From: a virus
Lineage: Duplodnaviria; Caudoviricetes
Length of the DNA stretch: 26,468 bases
Virus record (IMG/VR): IMGVR_UViG_3300035534_000051
Location: 1-26,468 of that record
Direction: 5' to 3' (one strand)
This document shows, piece by piece, positions 3,783 to 25,735 of the stretch. A model generated the notes under the pieces. It was not told the origin of the DNA. It saw only the letters and a list, made by a program, of their open reading frames with translations, and did no database searches. The translations under genes were made by a program, and so were the position numbers. Position 1 is the first letter of the stretch; the number at the start of each line of letters is the position of its first letter.

Positions 3783-4012
3783 TGGACATCGACCTCAATT
3801 ACGATGGTATCCCGATCCAGGCCGACCTTAAGTTCGAGGACCGCCTGTTCGGGGACCGGGTTGTCGGGTTCGACATGTGGGTGGAGCGGGTCAGGTGCCT
3901 CTCGGAAGATCCGGAAGATGTGGCCTATATCGAAGAGTTTCAAACGGAAGCGGCAGAGTTCGCACGGAGGTGGTTTGAAGATTACCAACGCGAACTTGAG
4001 GCTGGAATCTAA
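3782..4012 (+). CDS. Small acidic hypothetical protein (76 aa)
   Basis: GAGGT RBS, translational coupling; about 21 D/E versus 8 K/R. Confidence 0.75.
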   Translation: MDIDLNYDGIPIQADLKFEDRLFGDRVVGFDMWVERVRCLSEDPEDVAYIEEFQTEAAEFARRWFEDYQRELEAGI

Positions 4013-4063
4013 AACGACGGAAACAACAACCTTGAGCTAATCTTTCAACACACGGAGGCAGTC

Positions 4064-5119
4064 ATGAAGCAAGGAAAAAGCAATCTCGAAGAACTGGCAA
4101 AGACGATCATCGCAGAGGCAGAGGCAAAAGAAGACATCATTTGCGACACCCCGGCTATCACTCTTTCTGAAAATGGCACCATCAAAATTGAGGACAGAGA
4201 GCTTGTCATCGGTGAACACTTTCATGGACAAATGGCGGCGCACCTGAACATCCCCAGGCGTTACTATGACCGACTGTGGGGGTTCCACCGGGATCTGTTG
4301 GTAAACGATGTCAACGCCCTTCTCACAAGGGAACCGAAACGGCGGATGGTTCGGACGCGGGGTGGATCGGCTAGGGCGTTTGCTAGGGCGTTTTTGTCTG
4401 ATAAGTATCGCATCCTGGACAACGAGCAGGTTTTAGAGTCGGTGCTACCGATCTTGACTAGCGGAGATGTGCAACTCGCGTCGATGGAGGTTACGGAATC
4501 CCGCCTTTATATCAAGGCAACTTTTCCCGAGTGTAGGGGAGAGGTAACGCCCGGCGACGTGGTTGAGTCTGGGGTCATGCTCACAAATTCAGAGGTTGGG
4601 CTTGGAGCCCTGGCAGTGACCCCGTTTGTCAATCGGTTAGTGTGCACGAATGGCATGGTCGTGAATGAGGCTGAATCCAAGTTCGGGATCAAAAAAATGC
4701 ACCTGGGGGGTCGGATTCAGCAGGAAGGTGTCTTCCTCCGGGACGATACGCTCGAAGCCTCGGACAAGGCGTTTTTTATGCAGGTCCGGGATGTCGTTGG
4801 TGCTCTTGGGCACAAGGACTCTTTCGACAAGATCCTCGACACCTTTCGGGAGGCGGCCGGGCAGGATATAGAAGGTGATCCGGTTCGAGGGATTGAAATC
4901 TTACAAAAACGAACGGGACTTCGTGACGGGGAGAAGGCCTCCGTCATTCGACACCTGATAGAGGGGGGCGACCTGTCAAAATGGGGCGTAGCAAACGCTG
5001 TGACCAGGACCGCCGTTGATGTTGAGAGTTATGACAGGGCAACTGATTTAGAGGCCCTGGGCGGAAAGATCGTCACCATGCCGGAAGGTTCGTGGCGTGA
5101 AATTGCAACGGCTCAATAA
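4064..5119 (+). CDS. DUF932-family phage/plasmid protein (351 aa)
   Basis: Family motifs RAFLSDKY..LDN, LYIK, NSEVG.GAL, RLVCTNGM, and W...NAVT; GGAGG RBS. Confidence 0.85.
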   Translation: MKQGKSNLEELAKTIIAEAEAKEDIICDTPAITLSENGTIKIEDRELVIGEHFHGQMAAHLNIPRRYYDRLWGFHRDLLVNDVNALLTREPKRRMVRTRGGSARAFARAFLSDKYRILDNEQVLESVLPILTSGDVQLASMEVTESRLYIKATFPECRGEVTPGDVVESGVMLTNSEVGLGALAVTPFVNRLVCTNGMVVNEAESKFGIKKMHLGGRIQQEGVFLRDDTLEASDKAFFMQVRDVVGALGHKDSFDKILDTFREAAGQDIEGDPVRGIEILQKRTGLRDGEKASVIRHLIEGGDLSKWGVANAVTRTAVDVESYDRATDLEALGGKIVTMPEGSWREIATAQ

Positions 5120-5129
5120 GGGGGCGACC

Positions 5130-5330
5130 ATGTATTACGCATTGATCGACCTCGCAGAGCGGAGCGGCCCCATTTGTGGGGTCGTTCGGGGGACGTATGA
5201 GTCGTGGGAGGATGCTTACCGGGCAAAGTGGAGTACATACGCAAGGCGACCCTATATAGCTCGGGTTGGCCGGTATTTGTTCCCCGGAGAGCTATATACA
5301 CGTGATGTTACCCACAAAGCTTCTTCTTGA
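5130..5330 (+). CDS. Hypothetical protein (66 aa)
   Basis: AAGGGGG RBS, ATG at 5130; last ORF before a strong terminator. Confidence 0.6.
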   Translation: MYYALIDLAERSGPICGVVRGTYESWEDAYRAKWSTYARRPYIARVGRYLFPGELYTRDVTHKASS

Positions 5331-13718: not shown

Positions 13719-13729
13719 AAACAGACAGA

Positions 13730-13767
13730 AAAAAGCCCCCGGTTCTTTATCGAGCCGGGGGCTTTTT
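13730..13767. terminator. Bidirectional terminator between convergent genes
   Basis: AAAAAGCCCCCGGTTC-N6-GAGCCGGGGGCTTTTT. Confidence 0.9.
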
Positions 13768-14258
13768 CATGTGAGGTTCACTTCGATGTTCTTTTTGATC
13801 TGGTGAACGACTTTCGGGGCGTAGTGCCTTGTAAGTAAGTCGTTCAAGAAGTCGAAGCCCCCCTTTTTCACACGGTTTATTGCATGAGTTAGAAACGGCT
13901 GTCCCTTCCTTGCTGGCTGGTGGACCTCTCGGGCATAAATGATCCTTCCACCGATTACAAAGCGCAGACGCGCCCTTTCCGGGTTCTGTTGGTACCAGCT
14001 TTTTGAGTGATATTTTTTCCGTTCTCCACGAGGGGGGTTTTTCTGAATGTTCGGGCGGATTGTCAGGGGACCCCTTCCATCATGCACGGCTCTGGCGTAT
14101 GGAAGGTTCGAGCCAACTGAGGCCGCACCAACGCCCTCAACGCTTGCTTGGATAGACTTTCTCAAGTCCCCTGTCCTGAACGGAATTTGACCCGTCTTTG
14201 TGGCTTCTGCCCGGACCTTTTCAGCTATTTGGAGTGCTATCTGGGTCGAGATGTCCAT
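13767..14258 (-). CDS. HK97 gp10 / Mu gpG-like neck or tail-completion protein
   Basis: P.RTG.LR.SI...VGSN.PYA..VH.G...QPFL motifs; GGAG RBS. Confidence 0.75.
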   Translation of the reverse strand: MDISTQIALQIAEKVRAEATKTGQIPFRTGDLRKSIQASVEGVGAASVGSNLPYARAVHDGRGPLTIRPNIQKNPPRGERKKYHSKSWYQQNPERARLRFVIGGRIIYAREVHQPARKGQPFLTHAINRVKKGGFDFLNDLLTRHYAPKVVHQIKKNIEVNLT

Positions 14259-18294: not shown

Positions 18295-18732
18295 ATGCTC
18301 GATTGGTCTTTGATCAAGAATTTTGTGCGAAGGGAATGGCCCGAAGATCCTGATAAGGCGTCACCAGTGCTTGTCCGTGTCATGGACGAACTTTATGAAA
18401 ACGCGGCTCATGTCCTTGGGCGCGATCCCGAGATAACTATTGAAAAATGCTGGGAGGCTGACGACCACGGCGAAAAGTCTTTTCACGCTACGGGGCAAGC
18501 CGTCACTTTCCGCTTCGGACCGGATATACCGCTTGCTCACCAGTTTGCACTGATTACGGCTCACTCGCAGGTTGGAGATATTGGCCTGATTATGAATGAC
18601 GGACACACTGACCGTTGGGATGTCACCATCCGGAGTGGGAATATTCGGAAGTACTGGTATCAGGACAAAAACGCTGGCCCCATGGAGATGATCGAGGCGA
18701 TCAACCTTAAGGATCTGGCACGAGGGTATTAG
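18295..18732 (+). CDS. Peptidase M15-like fold protein, apparently with degenerate Zn ligands
   Basis: W..IKNF...E...LV..MD.L....G....I......H...S.H..G.A pattern and 'G.IG'; the canonical A.D and H.D residues read AVT and WDVT. Confidence 0.55.
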   Translation: MLDWSLIKNFVRREWPEDPDKASPVLVRVMDELYENAAHVLGRDPEITIEKCWEADDHGEKSFHATGQAVTFRFGPDIPLAHQFALITAHSQVGDIGLIMNDGHTDRWDVTIRSGNIRKYWYQDKNAGPMEMIEAINLKDLARGY

Positions 18733-18733
18733 C

Positions 18734-19126
18734 ATGGCATACGCCGAAGTGAGCGACCTCTATGATACTGTGATGCAGGACAAACTTGACGCGCTGGTGG
18801 ACGACGAGGGGGACGGGTCTATGATCGATGCAAGGCTTGTTGAGGCGGTGGACCGGGCAAGCGCAGAGATGGACACCTATATCAGCGAGCAATACGATCT
18901 TCCCCTTGAAGAGCCTTTCCCCCCTGTATTGACGAAAATTGCTTGTGACATAGCCGTTTATGCGATTTTTGCTCACGCTTACGACGATGTGCCTGTTACC
19001 CGGCGCGACCGATACAAGGATGCTGTGGCGATGCTCGAACAGATAAGGACGGGAGAGATATCCCTTATCAAGACCACGGGGGAAACCCCCTCTGGCGCAG
19101 GTCGGGTGGGTTGGTATGCGATTTAG
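18734..19126 (+). CDS. Head-tail adaptor (Mu gp36 / DUF1320-like)
   Basis: MAYA...DL; AS.E.D.YI...Y.LPL...P..L...ACDIA.Y; RY.DA...L..I..G.ISL. Confidence 0.88.
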   Translation: MAYAEVSDLYDTVMQDKLDALVDDEGDGSMIDARLVEAVDRASAEMDTYISEQYDLPLEEPFPPVLTKIACDIAVYAIFAHAYDDVPVTRRDRYKDAVAMLEQIRTGEISLIKTTGETPSGAGRVGWYAI

Positions 19127-19562
19127 TTTGTCGGAAATTGAAGATGCGATATTGGCATTGCTTGAGCCGCTGAAGGTCAGCCTCGGTGTTAGGACGGTGA
19201 AGGCGTACCAAGGTGAGCTTGAATCTCCCGACTTCGGGAAAATGATCGTCTTTTTCCCCGGGATCTTTCTTTATTACTCTGGGAGCACATCTGAACTGGT
19301 CAACAGGCGGGTGGTCGAAACCATGGAATGGTCGGTTTTTGCCGCTGACAGGTCGTTTAGGGGCGATGAGACGGCAAGGAGGGGTGGCACAAAGGGAGTT
19401 GGTACCTACGCGCTTATTAGTGCCATTGCGGACGTGCTACGAGGTCAAAAAGTGTGTGGTGGGGTCCTTATCCCGGTTGGCACAGAGTCAATCGCTTACT
19501 CACAGCGGAACGCCGTTTCTGTTTATGAAAGCCGCTTTCGCATCGACATTATGGAAGGCTAA
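19116..19562 (+). CDS. Tail terminator / Mu gp37-like protein
   Basis: EIEDAI...L; V..Y.GEL; G.Y.LI......L.G; follows the gp36-like gene. Confidence 0.7.
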   Translation: MRFSLSEIEDAILALLEPLKVSLGVRTVKAYQGELESPDFGKMIVFFPGIFLYYSGSTSELVNRRVVETMEWSVFAADRSFRGDETARRGGTKGVGTYALISAIADVLRGQKVCGGVLIPVGTESIAYSQRNAVSVYESRFRIDIMEG

Positions 19563-19564
19563 TC

Positions 19565-19762
19565 ATGAGCCCAGATCCCCTAGATATAATCGACGCGGCC
19601 TCACAGCAGTTTGTGGCGGAGCTTGCGGCACTCCCGAGGCGAGTAGATAGTCTGGAATCGGAGATTCGGACGGTCAAGCGCGTTCTTGCCTGTGCGTCTG
19701 CTGTGCTCTTCTTTGTGGCCGCAGAGGTGGCGCGAAACCTTATCAGGCAAAACCTGGGATAG
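19565..19762 (+). CDS. Small coiled-coil plus single-TM protein (holin/XhlA-like), 65 aa
   Basis: GGAAGG RBS; RRVDSLESEIRTVKR then hydrophobic VLACASAVLFFVAAEVA. Confidence 0.6.
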   Translation: MSPDPLDIIDAASQQFVAELAALPRRVDSLESEIRTVKRVLACASAVLFFVAAEVARNLIRQNLG

Positions 19763-19768
19763 CTAAAA

Positions 19769-20422
19769 GTGTTAAGACTTCTCAAAAACGCAAAAAGTAG
19801 AGTTGATAACGAGCGGCAGACTGTGGACGCTACAAAGGCGCGGCTTAAAATTATTGCGGAAGAGATCTCGAACGCAACGACCGAAGCGAGGAAGCAGCGG
19901 GACGAACTGCGCAGGTTGCGAGACGGATATGAATCACTTTCGCTACAACTCATTACCATGGCGAACTCTGCCGGTTTTTTGTGGCACAAGGATGCAGAAG
20001 GTCGGTTTCTTTTCGCCAGTCAGGACTGGTGCAATTTTTTCTGGCGCGATCACGCCTGTGATGTGGTTGGATTTACCGATCAAGAGCTGGCAGAGCGTTT
20101 TAGGATTCGGTTTCCAAAGGGAGTATTTACATTCGGAGATACAACGACCTGTGTTGGTTCTGACGTGATCACTATTGAAAAAAGAGCCCGGTGCCGTTTT
20201 TTTGAACTTGGCGAAGTCAGGGAATGCCCGGAAGATACGTCCCCAAAAGTTATCCTGCAAACAGAAAAAACGCCCCTGTACAGTAAAGCCGGGCGGTTCA
20301 TTGGCACGGTGGGAATGGCAATGAAGTTGTCGTGGGATGAATTTTGTCAGATGCGAAAGTCCCTGAACGAATCTGGGCGACTAAAAAAATTTTGTGAAAC
20401 CCTCTACCTGATCAATGATTGA
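19769..20422 (+). CDS. Coiled-coil plus PAS domain protein (217 aa)
   Basis: PAS signature 'LW.KD.EGRFLFAS...VVG.TD.EL' and PAC 'KTPLY...GRFIGTVG.A'; no kinase, GGDEF or other output domain. Confidence 0.85.
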   Translation: MLRLLKNAKSRVDNERQTVDATKARLKIIAEEISNATTEARKQRDELRRLRDGYESLSLQLITMANSAGFLWHKDAEGRFLFASQDWCNFFWRDHACDVVGFTDQELAERFRIRFPKGVFTFGDTTTCVGSDVITIEKRARCRFFELGEVRECPEDTSPKVILQTEKTPLYSKAGRFIGTVGMAMKLSWDEFCQMRKSLNESGRLKKFCETLYLIND

Positions 20423-20424
20423 AC

Positions 20425-20604
20425 ATGGATATAGCAGACATCGCACAGCTTTCAGTGGAGTGGGCGGAAATTCCACTGATGGTCCAACCTGGGGAAGGTA
20501 CGACCCATTGCGTCGATTGTGGAGAAAAGATCCCCGAAGCTCGAAAAGCCGCCTATCCACCGTGTATTCGGTGCGCTGAATGCCAAGAGGACTGGGAAAG
20601 ATGA
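20425..20604 (+). CDS. TraR/DksA C4-type zinc-finger protein (59 aa)
   Basis: N-terminal DxxDxA (DIADIA) and CVDCGE.IP.AR..A.P....C.ECQ. Confidence 0.9.
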   Translation: MDIADIAQLSVEWAEIPLMVQPGEGTTHCVDCGEKIPEARKAAYPPCIRCAECQEDWER

Positions 20605-21020
20605 TGTTTGCTCAATTACTTCGAGTTAGAACCGGCGAACAAGGAACCTTCGGGGTCTTTGCTATTAACGGTTTTTGTTGCCGGACGGTTGAACTGCCGT
20701 GGAAAGAAAATCGGCAAAACGTTTCTTGCATACCGAAGGGCGGCTATGTCGCTGAATTGCGGCAATCTCCAAGATACGGGGAAGTTTTTTTAATTAAGGA
20801 CGTTCCGGGGCGAAGTGGGATCTTGATTCATTCTGGGAATCTTGCCGGAGACATTTTTAAGGGCTGGCGGTCCCATTCGGAGGGTTGCATTTTGCTTGGT
20901 GAATACGACGGGTACCTTGGAAAACAGAGGGCGGTTTTGAACTCACGGGAAACAGTGCGTTCATTGGCCGAGGTCACGTGCGGCGAGTCATTCATCCTTG
21001 AAATAAGCGAGATGTACTGA
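20601..21020 (+). CDS. DUF5675-family protein, putative endolysin/cell-wall enzyme
   Basis: GTFG, T.ELPW..N..SCIP.G.Y, VPGRSGILIH.GN, SEGCIL.G. Confidence 0.8.
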   Translation: MMFAQLLRVRTGEQGTFGVFAINGFCCRTVELPWKENRQNVSCIPKGGYVAELRQSPRYGEVFLIKDVPGRSGILIHSGNLAGDIFKGWRSHSEGCILLGEYDGYLGKQRAVLNSRETVRSLAEVTCGESFILEISEMY

Positions 21021-21553
21021 TGATCTTTTCAAGTCTTATCGGCGGCGGTATTACTGGCATTCTGGGATCTCTTATCTCGAACGTTACGGATATATGGAAG
21101 GACCATGCAAGGCGCAAGCACGATTTGGCATTGCGTAGGCTCGATCTCGAAATGATGGACAAAGAATGGGAATATCGGGACCGAGCGAGCGAGCGAGAAG
21201 GGGAGACCCGGCTAGTGGAGTCCGGCGACGACATGCGGGCTGCGTCTTTCAAAGCCGACCGGCTCGCTTATGCCAGAGGCCTCAACTTGAATTCCCTATG
21301 GCTCAAGGCGTCGCTTGTCTTTGTCGATGTTGTCCGTGGGTTAGTCAGACCCGGATTGACACTTTATCTGGTCTGGGTTGTCCAGGCTACGCGAAGTGAA
21401 ACCGAGGCAATTATCAGGGCGGCGGGGTTAGAAACGATCAATGCGACACAAGCGCTGACAATCTACTCTGCCACTGTCGATATGCTTCTTTTTTTGGCGG
21501 CAACCGCCGTGACGTGGTGGTTCGGAACCAGACCTATCAAAAAAAACAAGTAA
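21020..21553 (+). CDS. Holin-like membrane protein (3TM holin type)
   Basis: Gly-rich hydrophobic N-terminus, 'VRG.VRP.LT', C-terminal 'WWFG.R' plus basic tail. Confidence 0.7.
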   Translation: MIFSSLIGGGITGILGSLISNVTDIWKDHARRKHDLALRRLDLEMMDKEWEYRDRASEREGETRLVESGDDMRAASFKADRLAYARGLNLNSLWLKASLVFVDVVRGLVRPGLTLYLVWVVQATRSETEAIIRAAGLETINATQALTIYSATVDMLLFLAATAVTWWFGTRPIKKNK

Positions 21554-21566
21554 ACAGGAGAAAACT

Positions 21567-22328
21567 ATGCCTCAAGCCCCTAGTCCGGAAAACTATCTCT
21601 ATGGCAAAGGTGAAATCTTTTTCAAGCCCTCTGGCGAAGATGGGTACCTTCACCTTGGAAACTGCCCCGCCTTTGCGTTGAATGTCGAACTTGAGAAGTC
21701 CGAACACTACTCTTCAATGGCCGGGACAAAGGAAAAAGATCTGTCCAAGGTGATCCAGAAGACGGTCAAAAGCTCGATCACTTTGGAGGAACTTTCACCC
21801 GCCAACTTGAATCTGGCGTTGATGGGTGGAGCCATTGTGGAAACCACCCAGGCCGAATCGGAGCTGGACGGGCTAGAGGTGGCGGTGGAGACTGGCCGCT
21901 TTGTGCCCATTTCGGAAGGAAAGATCCGCTTGTCTGATGTGGTTGTGACTGACGCAGCAACAAGCCCTACCACCACCTATACCGAGGGTGTGGACTACAT
22001 TGTAAGCCGTGAAGCGGGGATGATTATGTCGTTGCCAACGGGGTCTATTACCACGTCTTGTTTCGTAACCGCGACCGTTAACTCAGTCACAAAGGCCACC
22101 ATTTCCCCACTGTCACAGTCATCGGTGGCGGGGGAACTTTACTTTGTAGGGAATCCTGACATCGGTCCAAAGTGGCAAGTGCGCGGCTGGAACGTGGAAA
22201 TATCTCTTAATGGTGAGATACCATTTATCTCGGAAGATATTGCACAGATCACCGTGGAAGCCGAGTTTCAGGCCGATCGAGCATCCCATCCCTCTTCCCC
22301 GTTCTTTGAAGCCGTCAACGTGGCGTAA
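21567..22328 (+). CDS. Major tail (tube) protein
   Basis: Y.YGKG, LGNCP.F, EHYSS..G....D, L.E....NL.LAL.G; precedes chaperone and tape measure genes. Confidence 0.82.
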   Translation: MPQAPSPENYLYGKGEIFFKPSGEDGYLHLGNCPAFALNVELEKSEHYSSMAGTKEKDLSKVIQKTVKSSITLEELSPANLNLALMGGAIVETTQAESELDGLEVAVETGRFVPISEGKIRLSDVVVTDAATSPTTTYTEGVDYIVSREAGMIMSLPTGSITTSCFVTATVNSVTKATISPLSQSSVAGELYFVGNPDIGPKWQVRGWNVEISLNGEIPFISEDIAQITVEAEFQADRASHPSSPFFEAVNVA

Positions 22329-22339
22329 GGTAGGACTCT

Positions 22340-22723
22340 ATGCGGAAGCGAAGCACGATCAAGATTGATGATAGAGAAATCACGGTAAAGGAACTCACAG
22401 TCAAAGATGTACTGGAAATATTTGAGGCCGGGGGAGACCTTGAGAAAATGGACCTTTTTGAGCTGGTCAAAGTCCATCTTCCCAAAGCCGTAGATTTGAC
22501 CATTGATGACATGAAATCCATGGCCCCTTCCGATCTGGTTACCGTTTATGAGGCGTGGCGGGAGGTCAATTCAGCTTTTTTCAGGATAGCCCAGGCGGTC
22601 GGTCTGGGCGCAATCCTGAAAGAACTTGCAGCGGCGATGCAAAAAGACTTTATGACCCTGTTTTTCGCCTCATTGAAGCGGGACACCGCGACGTATGGGG
22701 TTACGGATGGGGAACCTTCATAA
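22340..22723 (+). CDS. Tail assembly chaperone (gpG-like)
   Basis: I.VKELTV..; EVN..FF; located between tail tube and tape measure genes. Confidence 0.8.
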   Translation: MRKRSTIKIDDREITVKELTVKDVLEIFEAGGDLEKMDLFELVKVHLPKAVDLTIDDMKSMAPSDLVTVYEAWREVNSAFFRIAQAVGLGAILKELAAAMQKDFMTLFFASLKRDTATYGVTDGEPS

Positions 22724-22842
22724 AGGCAGTTGAGAGCAATCAGACGGCCCGTGACGAACGGATCAAGGATTTAGCACTTGCCGTTCGTTACGGGTCACTC
22801 ATGGACCAAAAAACATTCACTCGGTGGCTAAATGGCTCGTAG
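22555..22842 (+). CDS. Tail assembly chaperone gpT-like segment, probably reached by -1 frameshift
   Basis: Open -1 frame overlapping the chaperone 3' end; 'LIEAGH..VW.Y.W..F'; slippery candidates T TTT TTC (22576) and G TTT TTC (22660). Confidence 0.65.
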   Translation: MAGGQFSFFQDSPGGRSGRNPERTCSGDAKRLYDPVFRLIEAGHRDVWGYGWGTFIKAVESNQTARDERIKDLALAVRYGSLMDQKTFTRWLNGS

Positions 22843-25735
22843 CAACACAGTAGAGGTCTTGATCAAGGCCCGAGATCGAGCGACCAAGGAAGTCGGGAAG
22901 GTGAACCAGGGCCTGTCGAAGCTGGAAGCCGCAGGGCATCGAGTTTCACGGGCCTTTTTTTCGCTCAAAACTGCGATAGCCGGGATCGGTGTTGCCTGGA
23001 GTGCAATCAGTGTCGCAAAGACTGGGGCTGCTTTTGAGCAGACCATGGCCGAAGTCCAGGGGATCACGCGGGCAACGAAGGCTGAATTTGAAGCGCTTGA
23101 AACTGTTGCCCGTGAAATGGGCGAGAGTACGGAATGGTCCGCATCCCAGGCCGCAGAGGGTCTAAAGTTTCTCAGTATGGCCGGAATGACGGCCTCGCAG
23201 TCGATTACGGCGCTTCCAGGAATGCTCGATCTTGCCACGGCTGGCGGGATCGAGCTTGGCCGTGCCGCAGATATTGCCACGGACACGCTTTCAGCCTTTC
23301 GGCTTGAGGTGGAAGAAACGGGCCGGGTCAATGACGTCTTTGCTCGAACCATCACTACCTCGAATACGAATATCGAACTCATGTCCGAAAGTATGAAGTA
23401 TGTCGCGGCAACAGCGGCAGGCTTCGGCTATTCCATCGAGGAAGCCAGTGCGTTAATCGGCATCTTGGGCAACAACGGAATTAAGGGGTCCATGGCCGGA
23501 ACCCAGCTTGCTCAATCGTTTATTCAAGCGAAGGAGGCTTTTGACTATTACGGGGTCTCAGCGCGGAATGCAGATGGGTCAAGCAAGGGGCTTGTTGAGG
23601 CTCTTGAACTACTCGAAGAGCAAGGGGCTACGACCGAAGAAGTTATGGAACTCTTCGGGGATAGGGCTGGCCGGGCCATCAACTCCTTTCTCGGTGTGGG
23701 AACAAAGGCTATCCGGAAGTACGTCGAGGAGATCAACAAGGCGGAGGGGGCTTCGACTACTCTCGCTACCACAATGCGCTCCACGACCCTTGCCGCATGG
23801 AAGGAGTGGAAATCGGTTGTCGAATCCATCAAGATCGACATTTTTGACAAGTACGGGGAATCCATAAAGCAGTTTTTGAAGGGCATGACCGAGGCCCTGC
23901 GAGGCTCGAAGGATCAGGTCATAGACGCTGTTGGGGTTATCGGGCCGCTTCTTGTCAGGATGCTTGCGGGTGTGATGAGAGCGTCAGGGAATACGGTTTT
24001 GGTTTTTGTTTCCTTGAAGCGGGCCCTGCACGACATAGGCACCTTTGCGGCGGCGGTTGCCACGGTCTTTGTGGATCTGGCGGCGGCTATGAACCTTTTG
24101 GACCCTGTAACGGCTTTCAAATCCGCGACGCAAGGATTCCGTGCCGCGATGCCAGAACTTGCAAAGGTCCGTGACAGCATCGACGAATTCGGAGAATCCC
24201 AGGCGCTGGCGGCACTCGAAACGGACAAACTCGGAAATGAAACCGCGAAGCTGGCGCTGGTTACTGACGGCTTGGCCGACAACATGCTTAAGATGTTGGA
24301 GCGGACCCAGAACGCAAAGAGCGCGACCAAAGATGAAACCGAGGCGATAAAGGAGAACACGGAAGCCAAGAAGGAGAACGCGAAGGCATCTGGCGGCGAA
24401 TCGGAAAGTAAGGCCAAAAGGCCAGTGGCAACTCTTCCCGTGTCAGAGGTGATCCGATCTGAAATGAGCGTGTTCCTGGCAGAAAATGAGACGCTCATCG
24501 CGGAGCTGGAATCGACATTTGACCGTGCCCTCGTGTCCGCTGATGAATACGTCAAGGGGCGAAAGCAGCTAATTCTTGATGGGATCGACAAGGAAATAGC
24601 GCTTACGAAAAGTGCCGGAACAGCGGAAATTGCACGGATGCAATCGCAGTATGACGGCATGATCAATGAGGCCGAGAAAAGAAATCTCTTGCAGCAGATC
24701 CTAAAAGCCCGGTTGAAGCTCGAAGAAGAACTAAGGATCAAGGCCGAGGAACGGAAACGCGCTGAAATCGAGCTTGCGGATCTTGAGGCCGACGCAGAAC
24801 AGAACGCCCTTGACGCAAAACGAGACAAGGATGAGGCTTTGCGGGATCTTCGCGGCCGGGCACTCGAAGAAGATGACGTAGAGGGCCGATTTGCGCTCGA
24901 AATCGAAGGTATAGAGGCGAAACATGTTCGTGAATTGGAAATGCTTTCGGAACACGGAGCATCCAAAAAGGAACTGCTGGAAGCGCAAGCACTTCAAGAA
25001 CAGGAAATCGAAAACAAAAAAGCTGCTCACCAAAAATCGCTATACGAACAACGCATCTCATGGGCTAAAGATTTTGTGGGGGGCATGGCCGACTCGATGC
25101 AGGCTTTGTATGCCTCTGGGCTGGCGCAGAGCGAGTCTATGTTCAAGGTCTATCAAGCCTTTGCAATCGCGGAGACGATTATCTCCACATATTCCAGTGC
25201 ACAGAAAGCGTACGATGATATGCTTGTCGCTGGTGGACCGTGGGCCATTCCGTTGGCCGTCGCCGCGGCAGCCGCGGCGGTAGCCGGTGGCATGGCCCGT
25301 GTAGCCGCCATCAAGTCCGCTAAACCCCAGGGCTACGCCTACGGTGGCCTGATAGGTGGTCCAGATGAGGGGGCTCGTGCGGACAATGTGACGATCAGGG
25401 CAACCCCGGGCGAATACATGATGGATCGGCCTACCGTAAGGCACTATGGTGTCCGTGTCATGGAGGCCTTGAGGCAAAGACTGGTACCCAGGGACCTACT
25501 CTCAAGCGTCCACTTGCCCGCTATTCGTCCTGCGTACGCGGGGCCGGGGTTTGCATACGGTGGGCAGGTGGGACGGCAAAATACCCCTTCTCGGCCCCCA
25601 CAGCAGACCACTATTGTCAACCTAACTGATAAGTCAGAACTGGATCGCTATCTGGCATCGGTTGAGGGTCAAAATGCGATTATGAATATCATCTCTACGC
25701 GGAGCCAGACTGTCCGGCGAATAGTGGGGGACTAG
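22832..25735 (+). CDS. Tail tape measure protein (TP901-type core), 967 aa
   Basis: FE..M..V; SA.QAA.G...L..AG; L...GIKGS.AGT.L; long Ala-rich helical body; C-terminal YA.GG...D.V.....PGEY. Confidence 0.93.
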   Translation: MARSNTVEVLIKARDRATKEVGKVNQGLSKLEAAGHRVSRAFFSLKTAIAGIGVAWSAISVAKTGAAFEQTMAEVQGITRATKAEFEALETVAREMGESTEWSASQAAEGLKFLSMAGMTASQSITALPGMLDLATAGGIELGRAADIATDTLSAFRLEVEETGRVNDVFARTITTSNTNIELMSESMKYVAATAAGFGYSIEEASALIGILGNNGIKGSMAGTQLAQSFIQAKEAFDYYGVSARNADGSSKGLVEALELLEEQGATTEEVMELFGDRAGRAINSFLGVGTKAIRKYVEEINKAEGASTTLATTMRSTTLAAWKEWKSVVESIKIDIFDKYGESIKQFLKGMTEALRGSKDQVIDAVGVIGPLLVRMLAGVMRASGNTVLVFVSLKRALHDIGTFAAAVATVFVDLAAAMNLLDPVTAFKSATQGFRAAMPELAKVRDSIDEFGESQALAALETDKLGNETAKLALVTDGLADNMLKMLERTQNAKSATKDETEAIKENTEAKKENAKASGGESESKAKRPVATLPVSEVIRSEMSVFLAENETLIAELESTFDRALVSADEYVKGRKQLILDGIDKEIALTKSAGTAEIARMQSQYDGMINEAEKRNLLQQILKARLKLEEELRIKAEERKRAEIELADLEADAEQNALDAKRDKDEALRDLRGRALEEDDVEGRFALEIEGIEAKHVRELEMLSEHGASKKELLEAQALQEQEIENKKAAHQKSLYEQRISWAKDFVGGMADSMQALYASGLAQSESMFKVYQAFAIAETIISTYSSAQKAYDDMLVAGGPWAIPLAVAAAAAAVAGGMARVAAIKSAKPQGYAYGGLIGGPDEGARADNVTIRATPGEYMMDRPTVRHYGVRVMEALRQRLVPRDLLSSVHLPAIRPAYAGPGFAYGGQVGRQNTPSRPPQQTTIVNLTDKSELDRYLASVEGQNAIMNIISTRSQTVRRIVGD

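Follow-up and report, generated by a model that had tools for sequence, protein, structure and literature searches.

A conserved two-gene phage module of a single-helix membrane peptide and a stand-alone PAS protein, and the case for sensor-tuned lysis

The time at which a phage lyses its host sets burst size and phage fitness. In the described cases where lysis responds to a signal, at least in the excerpts of these sources available, the response runs through superinfection (T4; PMC12162936) or through transcription (VqmA; PMC8284805). T4 lysis inhibition involves the holin T and two antiholins, the periplasmic RI and the cytoplasmic RIII (PMC12162936). VqmA of vibriophage VP882 joins a PAS domain to a helix-turn-helix (HTH); a transcription factor with DPO as its ligand, it works via Qtip on the lysis-lysogeny switch (PMC8284805). 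Accessory lysis proteins with a single, N-terminal transmembrane segment (TM) are also described, namely gp25 releasin of phage Mu (DUF2730; PMC9239132) and LysF1b of a mycobacteriophage (PMC13056207). PAS domains with iron-sulfur (Fe-S) sites serve as sensors in OrpR of Desulfovibrio vulgaris, which reports redox through the cysteines C52-C61-C65 (PMC8359166), and in NreB of Bacillus (PMC13478379). Here, we analyze a 26,468-bp stretch of DNA, the whole of virus record IMGVR_UViG_3300035534_000051 (hereafter, the window), in which a gene for a small membrane peptide, TM65, lies directly ahead of a gene for a stand-alone coiled-coil/PAS protein. The two form an undescribed, conserved two-gene phage module, for which sensor-tuned lysis is a good candidate role.

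The locus resembles each of these systems in part. The likeness to T4, as far as the available text describes that system, lies in a single-TM lysis protein combined with a regulatory domain of globular fold and with a soluble partner by which lysis time is tuned to a signal. However, the globular domain of T is periplasmic and its proposed signal is superinfecting phage DNA (PMC12162936), whereas here the globular part is a separate, predicted cytoplasmic PAS protein of a host sensor type. We found no sequence similarity between the T4 lysis proteins and this pair, nor does the pair have the build of a T4-type holin, as the PAS protein has no TM, TM65 ends at a normal TAG stop, and the two genes are out of frame in the closest relative, L007. 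The domain of T has been labeled GAF-like, which a literature search did not confirm. VqmA is the best structural match to the PAS protein and, likewise, a phage-encoded PAS protein of a host-signaling kind that bears on lysis. It is also the only sequence match of the family profile in the PDB (7dwm, E 0.003). Unlike VqmA, the window PAS protein has no HTH, and it has a long N-terminal helix, a membrane-peptide partner and a late-gene position. OrpR and NreB share with it at least three conserved Cys in a PAS domain of anaerobe-related signaling. In the accessible parts of their descriptions they carry fused ATPase or kinase outputs, whereas a cofactor of the window PAS protein is conjectural. 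The OrpR-type pattern C-x8-C-x3-C is absent: C88-x8-C97 is present, position 101 is an invariant Gly, and the other Cys are at 128 and 142. Like gp25 and LysF1b, to go by the available text on both, TM65 is a small one-TM protein of a putative lysis cassette, with a predicted cytoplasmic part that could assist or time lysis. The TM is C-terminal in TM65 but N-terminal in gp25 and LysF1b, that text reports no PAS partner for either, and the DUF2730 profile matched neither the window peptide nor 23 partners from other loci. Peptides of the XhlA type, which are small one-TM lysis-cassette proteins, consist of a coiled coil followed by a C-terminal TM. TM65 fits this definition in architecture; it has no Pfam match, and weak matches to the PHROG 'hemolysin' family phrog_1193 occur in 4 of 26 partners (E 0.002-0.025) and not in TM65 itself.

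The strongest evidence for a module is the pairing of the two genes across viruses. We gathered viral loci by alignment scans and by a motif scan, which gave 33 loci and whose motif passes over members without the His; a sub-alignment scan (A4) found no loci. Open reading frames (ORFs) of more than 150 aa that matched the family profile were kept, and clustering at 70% identity gave 25 groups, one of them that of the window. L029 (no profile match) and L016 and L019, fragmentary ORFs of 83 and 71 aa, were dropped before counting. In 24 of the 25 clusters, a gene for a single-TM peptide lies directly up- or downstream of the PAS gene on the same strand. These partners are 63-162 aa long, helical in their N-terminal part and with a single TM; the gaps to the PAS gene range from -46 to +27 nt. 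Framed as a rule (a same-strand, single-TM neighbor of 55-165 aa), the adjacency holds for 24/25 viral clusters vs 3/72 cellular loci with this PAS type, and for 18/406 other genes in the viral loci. Two of the three cellular cases are doubtful ORFs and the third, L070, sits in a phage-like lysis cassette. In the exceptional 25th cluster, L008, the PAS domain is itself fused to three TMs and lies beside membrane genes and a GH108 endolysin. Five further fusions of this kind occur among the profile matches; in these and in L008, charge counts put the PAS domain on the positively charged, predicted cytoplasmic side. L007, whose genome layout differs, encodes a PAS protein 51% identical to that of the window and, directly upstream, a TM65 homolog of 49% identity. 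A crude count between TM65 and this homolog gives pN 0.33 and pS 0.89, and both genes of the pair are under purifying selection. The part of TM65 ahead of its TM carries a net charge of -4, the PAS helix one of +4. The conserved unit is the two-gene TM65-PAS pair and not a five-gene cassette.

The module varies between phages. L043 holds two PAS-peptide pairs in tandem (3798-5330), with PAS domains of differing type. Tandem-PAS proteins of ~435 aa are found in L020 (4009-5768), L025 (4290-6022) and L042 (4278-6001), where the helix-TM partners are longer (139-162 aa) and no endolysin is nearby. In one clade, a third conserved peptide of 41-64 aa, ending in Cys, follows the TM peptide (Table 1). 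No cultured phage with this PAS family was found in 50,697 records with five queries. One structure match of 240 aa (E 8e-4) agrees by length with gp108 of Cellulophaga phage phi19:1, a TM-helix-globular protein encoded behind three membrane genes and possibly an analogue, differing in topology, from a cultured phage.

In the window, the pair is part of a larger gene run, which the initial annotation had read as a five-gene lysis cassette with a built-in sensor: TM65, the PAS protein, a TraR/DksA-type zinc finger, a DUF5675 protein and the holin-like TM177. Five tightly coupled plus-strand ORFs between the tail terminator and tail tube genes are indeed there, as coordinates and gaps confirm. 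From 19562 onward the successive gaps and overlaps are 2, 6, -4, -4 (with the DUF5675 start at 20601) and -1 nt, and the ORFs are translationally coupled. Hydropathy gives one TM in TM65 (residues 37-55), three peaks in TM177 (1.76, 1.38 and 1.70) and none in the PAS ORF. A readthrough fusion of TM65 to the PAS protein, which are in the same frame and separated by TAG plus 6 nt, was considered and rejected; several ordinary genes of this genome also stop at TAG, and in L007 the two genes are in different frames. If all five genes were one unit, TraR could be the output that links the PAS protein to lysis-gene transcription. The coupling fits this, as does the recovery of the five genes intact together in an independent sequencing run, but co-occurrence data largely refute it and we consider it very improbable. 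A motif scan found TraR in 0/24 other PAS clusters and 0/3 DUF5675/3TM loci, and the window DUF5675 and TM177 genes have no tblastn match in the 24 other PAS loci. Around the L007 pair, there is no TraR, DUF5675 or TM177 gene within 6 kb. Conversely, homologs of DUF5675 followed by TM177 occur without PAS or TraR in three further loci (L173-L175) and, after tail genes, in the cultured Vibrio phage R21Y; in L173-L175, the holin-like gene is preceded by the gene of a different single-TM peptide, which in L174 and L175 adjoins DUF5675 on its upstream side. As the pair, TraR and DUF5675-TM177 do not travel together across loci, the cassette is an assembly of separate parts, and is thus composed of the TM65-PAS pair, TraR, and a DUF5675-TM177 pair. 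On these distributions, TraR appears to be an unrelated passenger outside the conserved pair, and DUF5675 with TM177 a separate, lysis-like pair. The partner of the PAS protein is the TM peptide.

The PAS protein was described from its sequence as a stand-alone coiled-coil/PAS protein with seven Cys and no output domain, and Atlas features, profile search and fold all agree. Its AlphaFold (AF2) model, built from 29 sequences, has a pLDDT (predicted local distance difference test) of 95 and comprises a helix (residues 2-68), the PAS core (70-187), a C-terminal helix (189-201) and a hairpin (205-215). The core has the five-stranded antiparallel sheet flanked by helices, in PAS topology, that defines the superfamily. 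The VqmA match (Z 10.5, root-mean-square deviation 5.1, 122 aligned residues) is tied with other PAS domains (Foldseek, VIA); 31 chains reach a Z of at least 8, those listed being PAS or LOV domains, and Foldseek gives 95 matches at E<=0.001. By ESM-Atlas features the ORF falls among PAS_4 clusters (0.96), of which two, with 159 and 133 members, are entirely viral. A profile built from three homologs finds 1299 proteins, including, as a multidomain match, a PAS histidine kinase (P0015). The ORF itself has no Pfam, PHROG or NCBIfam match, and so falls below the curated PAS/PAS_4 cut-off, which for PAS_4 is passed by its relatives L031, L048, L045, L034 and L049. After the PAS core there is a 30-residue helix plus hairpin and no C-terminal HTH, nor any HTH family match. 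This helix and hairpin (window 20321-20419) are kept in the window's clade and missing from most long cellular proteins; the element could be an output element, and we take it to resemble part of a winged helix. A membrane-binding amphipathic N-terminus was also considered, with a median moment of 0.61 across the PAS family (38 proteins) and 0.52 across 163 control proteins (p 7e-6). We did not accept it; the coiled coil confounds the measure, and the window protein scores 0.52.

Does the PAS domain bind a ligand? Cys88, 97, 128 and 142 are conserved among viral PAS relatives and all four are present in the window protein, which at residue 120 has Phe where the family has a conserved His. Among profile matches, which were not selected by motif, long PAS proteins have Cys88 in 96/118, His120 in 93/118 and Cys128 in 104/118 cases, and short ones in 27/34, 22/34 and 27/34, most of the short proteins having helped to build the profile. 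Cys97 and Cys142 are additions of the short proteins (23/34 and 25/34, vs 5 and 15 of 118 long ones). A cofactor in the window protein is plausible. The domain could instead regulate lysis while binding no ligand, in a purely structural part: as a cytoplasmic antiholin or a chaperone of TM65, always active, it would set a fixed lysis delay. Phe in place of His120 in the window's subfamily and the length of the clade's branch (2.8 changes per column) speak for this, and T4 lysis, in the available text, is likewise regulated by a globular domain and by RIII, an antiholin of the cytoplasm (PMC12162936). We nevertheless judge it unlikely, as Cys88 and Cys128 are kept and Cys97 and Cys142 gained, the pattern of a cofactor site and not of a decayed one, and as a second clade of 12 clusters, although found by that very motif, retains the full His/Cys motif.

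The same PAS type is found in cells. A motif scan of species genomes returned at least 120 loci, 80 of them with flanks; we counted the 72 with a complete ORF match, which leaves out 8 genome loci without one and 40 without flanks. In 69/72, the domain sits in a protein of at least 340 aa. The taxa are mainly Desulfobacterota, Campylobacterota and Bacteroidales, with some Betaproteobacteria and one member of the Methanosarcinales. By sequence, the Cys/His PAS type is shared with signaling proteins of anaerobes and microaerophiles. This agrees with the anaerobic setting first proposed for the window, as do the sources of the 24 runs listed as holding the cassette, which are 23 oil-field metagenomes and one aquifer metagenome. 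When 401 Desulfobacterota genomes were searched for prophage copies, nothing but four long proteins came up at E<=1e-15. A quick tree of 97 rows hinted that viruses had taken the domain from hosts several times independently, with at least three viral groups, one among Campylobacterota. We do not claim this; the nesting was lost in a careful 41-row tree, and the approximately unbiased (AU) test keeps one viral clade, so that a single viral origin is not rejected (p-AU 0.33).

If the pair acts in lysis, it should lie near lysis genes. A known or putative endolysin is within 2.3 kb of the PAS gene in 16/25 clusters, belonging to GH108, M15, M23, phrog_894 or phrog_181 besides DUF5675 (Table 1). 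In L024, the pair precedes a holin-like gene, two spanin-like genes and a GH108 gene (holin and spanin labels by TM and lipobox patterns), and since a complete lysis set already stands behind it there, the pair looks accessory. The tabulated neighborhoods thus bear out the proposed linkage in 16 clusters and fail to do so in nine. An alternative is that the pair is a membrane-tethered signaling or decoy module unrelated to lysis timing, placed near lysis genes merely as a fellow late gene. Such a decoy would sequester a host ligand, or cross-dimerize with host kinases or cyclases of the same PAS type, and so retune host physiology or superinfection. The PAS type is common in host signaling proteins, and the pair is kept without a nearby endolysin in those nine clusters, is placed among head/packaging or tail genes in L007, L012 and L047, has opposite-strand genes on both sides in L020 and L048, and is doubled in L043. 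Yet 16/25 compares with ~5-15% expected (a rough estimate, assuming one endolysin per 30-100 kb genome), the partner is built like small lysis-cassette membrane peptides, the weak 'hemolysin' matches point the same way, and PADLOC, run on eight proteins, gave one weak unrelated match and no convincing defense-system match. We therefore regard the decoy as rather unlikely.

Several observations weigh against a role in lysis all the same. The available flanks of the nine clusters L007, L009, L012, L047, L048, L043, L020, L025 and L042 hold no endolysin (for L047, the upstream flank examined is 1.2 kb). By clade, the linkage is 11/12 in one, 5/9 in the window's and 0/4 in the rest, and because 11 of the 16 linked clusters share one clade, the counts are not independent. 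L007 has its DUF5675 gene ~33 kb from the pair. Among the partner peptides sequence similarity is low (5-49% to TM65), and profile searches place none of them in a holin family. The lytic role of DUF5675 and TM177, assigned from sequence, is unproven, and the window PAS protein, with its Phe at 120 and long branch, may have lost its ligand.

On balance, we propose that TM65 and the PAS protein are a signal-responsive accessory lysis regulator, and give this a probability of about 0.45. Its observed basis is the PAS fold without an output domain, the almost invariable adjacency of the two genes, the frequent endolysin link, and the kinship with the Cys/His PAS domains of anaerobes. Of the original sensor-lysis idea, the feature itself and its link to lysis have stood; the role had been ascribed to too many genes, and would belong to the pair only. 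Both genes would be expressed late, with TM65 in the inner membrane and its helix in the cytoplasm. The long N-terminal PAS helix would pair with the TM65 helix and so tether the PAS protein to this membrane. Redox, oxygen or a metabolite would be read at a metal, Fe-S or thiol site (Cys88/97/128/142), and the signal would shift the coiled coil so as to free or lock TM65, which would then advance or delay both the opening of holes by TM177 and the release of the wall hydrolase, DUF5675. In a more specific form, a metal or Fe-S PAS domain without enzymatic output, coupled by a coiled coil to a one-helix peptide, might let oxygen, sulfide or redox gate lysis at the membrane in viruses of anaerobes and microaerophiles, as a post-translational lysis clock that holds or releases virions by habitat redox. 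We offer this tentatively, as possible rather than probable.

The labels given to the other cassette members rest on family matches. TraR matches PF01258 (1e-9; 38.4 bits vs a cut-off of 24.9), phrog_54 and TIGR02419 (2e-12), and has a four-Cys finger. DUF5675 matches PF18925 (8e-28; 97 bits vs 26.7) and, at 0.004, Tlde1; both names thus agree with the initial annotation. His84 and Cys103 of the DUF5675 protein are invariant in three homologs. Its model is of low confidence (pLDDT 57), and the Foldseek rows listed for it are nearly all L,D-transpeptidases (best E 0.011), the remainder being DpaA, Csd6 and Bd1075. We regard it as a putative endolysin with a modeled L,D-transpeptidase-like fold. 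DUF5675 proteins have been classed among 'C82-like' candidate lysins, their function given as still unknown in the text available (bioRxiv 10.64898/2026.04.11.717860), and the window protein is like these in family, L,D-transpeptidase-like fold, and His and Cys residues. TM177 matches phrog_6637 (7e-18) and lies at 0.96 to an Atlas cluster named 'putative Holin of 3TMs'; it has no Pfam match, and GTA_holin_3TM (PF11351) is a name borne by, or annotated in part of, its Atlas neighbors (27% of one cluster).

Table 1. Positions of the cassette genes and their flanks in the window, of the third conserved peptide, and loci with an endolysin near the pair.
Feature	Sequence	Coordinates	Strand	Remarks
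Mu gp37-like tail terminator (upstream flank)	window	19116-19562	+	PF08873 8e-17
TM65	window	19565-19762	+	65 aa; acidic heptad-pattern N-terminal helix, one C-terminal TM; partner of PAS gene
Coiled-coil/PAS protein	window	19769-20422	+	217 aa, 7 Cys; stand-alone, no TM, no output domain
TraR/DksA C4 zinc finger, phage-type	window	20419-20604	+	61 aa; likely start ATG 20425
DUF5675 protein, putative endolysin	window	20580-21020	+	146 aa; likely start ATG 20601
TM177, holin-like	window	21020-21553	+	177 aa; three hydrophobic segments
Tail tube (major tail protein; downstream flank)	window	21567-22328	+	phrog_807 4e-41
Third Cys-ending peptide	L024	4284-4409		
Third Cys-ending peptide	L031	2680-2814		
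Third Cys-ending peptide	L036	4332-4457		
Third Cys-ending peptide	L049	5491-5616		
Third Cys-ending peptide	L070	3985-4113		
Third Cys-ending peptide	L039	4355-4549		
GH108 or PG_binding_3 near pair	L008, L024, L028, L031, L037, L049			
M15 near pair	L034, L035, L036, L038, L039, L041			
M23 near pair	L010			weak
PHROG endolysins near pair	L033, L045			
DUF5675 near pair	window			

Beyond the cassette, the window encodes replication genes, terminase, head genes, Mu-gp36/gp37-like connectors, tail tube, chaperone and tape measure. Seven of the 24 runs may be the source of the record. The aquifer run, which is not flagged as such, contains a single contig that covers 19264-22400 with 23 substitutions and no gaps; because this ungapped contig spans the whole region, the cassette is not an assembly artefact. 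No RNA dataset is among the runs listed, and a promoter and terminator scan stayed at chance level. Short, high-depth contigs of the aquifer run match window 19264-19293 and 19954-19993 and then continue into unrelated letters, in one case a CRISPR-type repeat; the matches are probably spacers against the gp37-like and PAS genes. The 24-nt loose end next to one probable spacer matches a CRISPR-type repeat exactly in 2/401 Desulfobacterota genomes, whose arrays hold no spacer for the window; this host search covered that phylum only.

Other parts of the window also drew our attention. Within the plus-strand head module, the segment 13767-15598 has a portal and a neck/tail-completion gene in minus orientation; these converge on a Mu-F-like gene, with a 21-nt hairpin (13725-13772) at the meeting point, and a search for inverted repeats flanking the segment found none. 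A TET-associated glycosyltransferase (PF20691; 9776-10639) adjoins a ParB-like gene, which suggests DNA modification. The tape-measure gene (22832-25735) differs strongly between near-identical phage variants, whereas the cassette is nearly invariant; against variant L006, 179 codons carry non-synonymous changes, an ungapped count that an indel could inflate. A 145-aa ORF ahead of the gp36-like gene (18295-18732) has no Pfam, PHROG or NCBIfam match and, by eye, presumably recalls a degenerate M15-type peptidase.

Literature searches on PAS proteins in phages and their lysis, with thin coverage of subscription papers, brought up no description of a module like this one. The Cys/His PAS subfamily is widespread in sulfur-cycling bacteria and apparently unstudied, and the module, at two genes and ~860 bp, is small enough to be rebuilt in a laboratory host. 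If our reading is true, signal-responsive lysis would have a third route, in which a PAS protein of the cytoplasm acts on a lysis component in the membrane, and viral release in anoxic settings, oil reservoirs and aquifers among them, would be tied to the redox state of the host. The PAS protein and the peptide, found ahead of probable lysis genes in the window and side by side in many other uncultured phages, suggest that burst timing may be tuned to the chemical state of the host.

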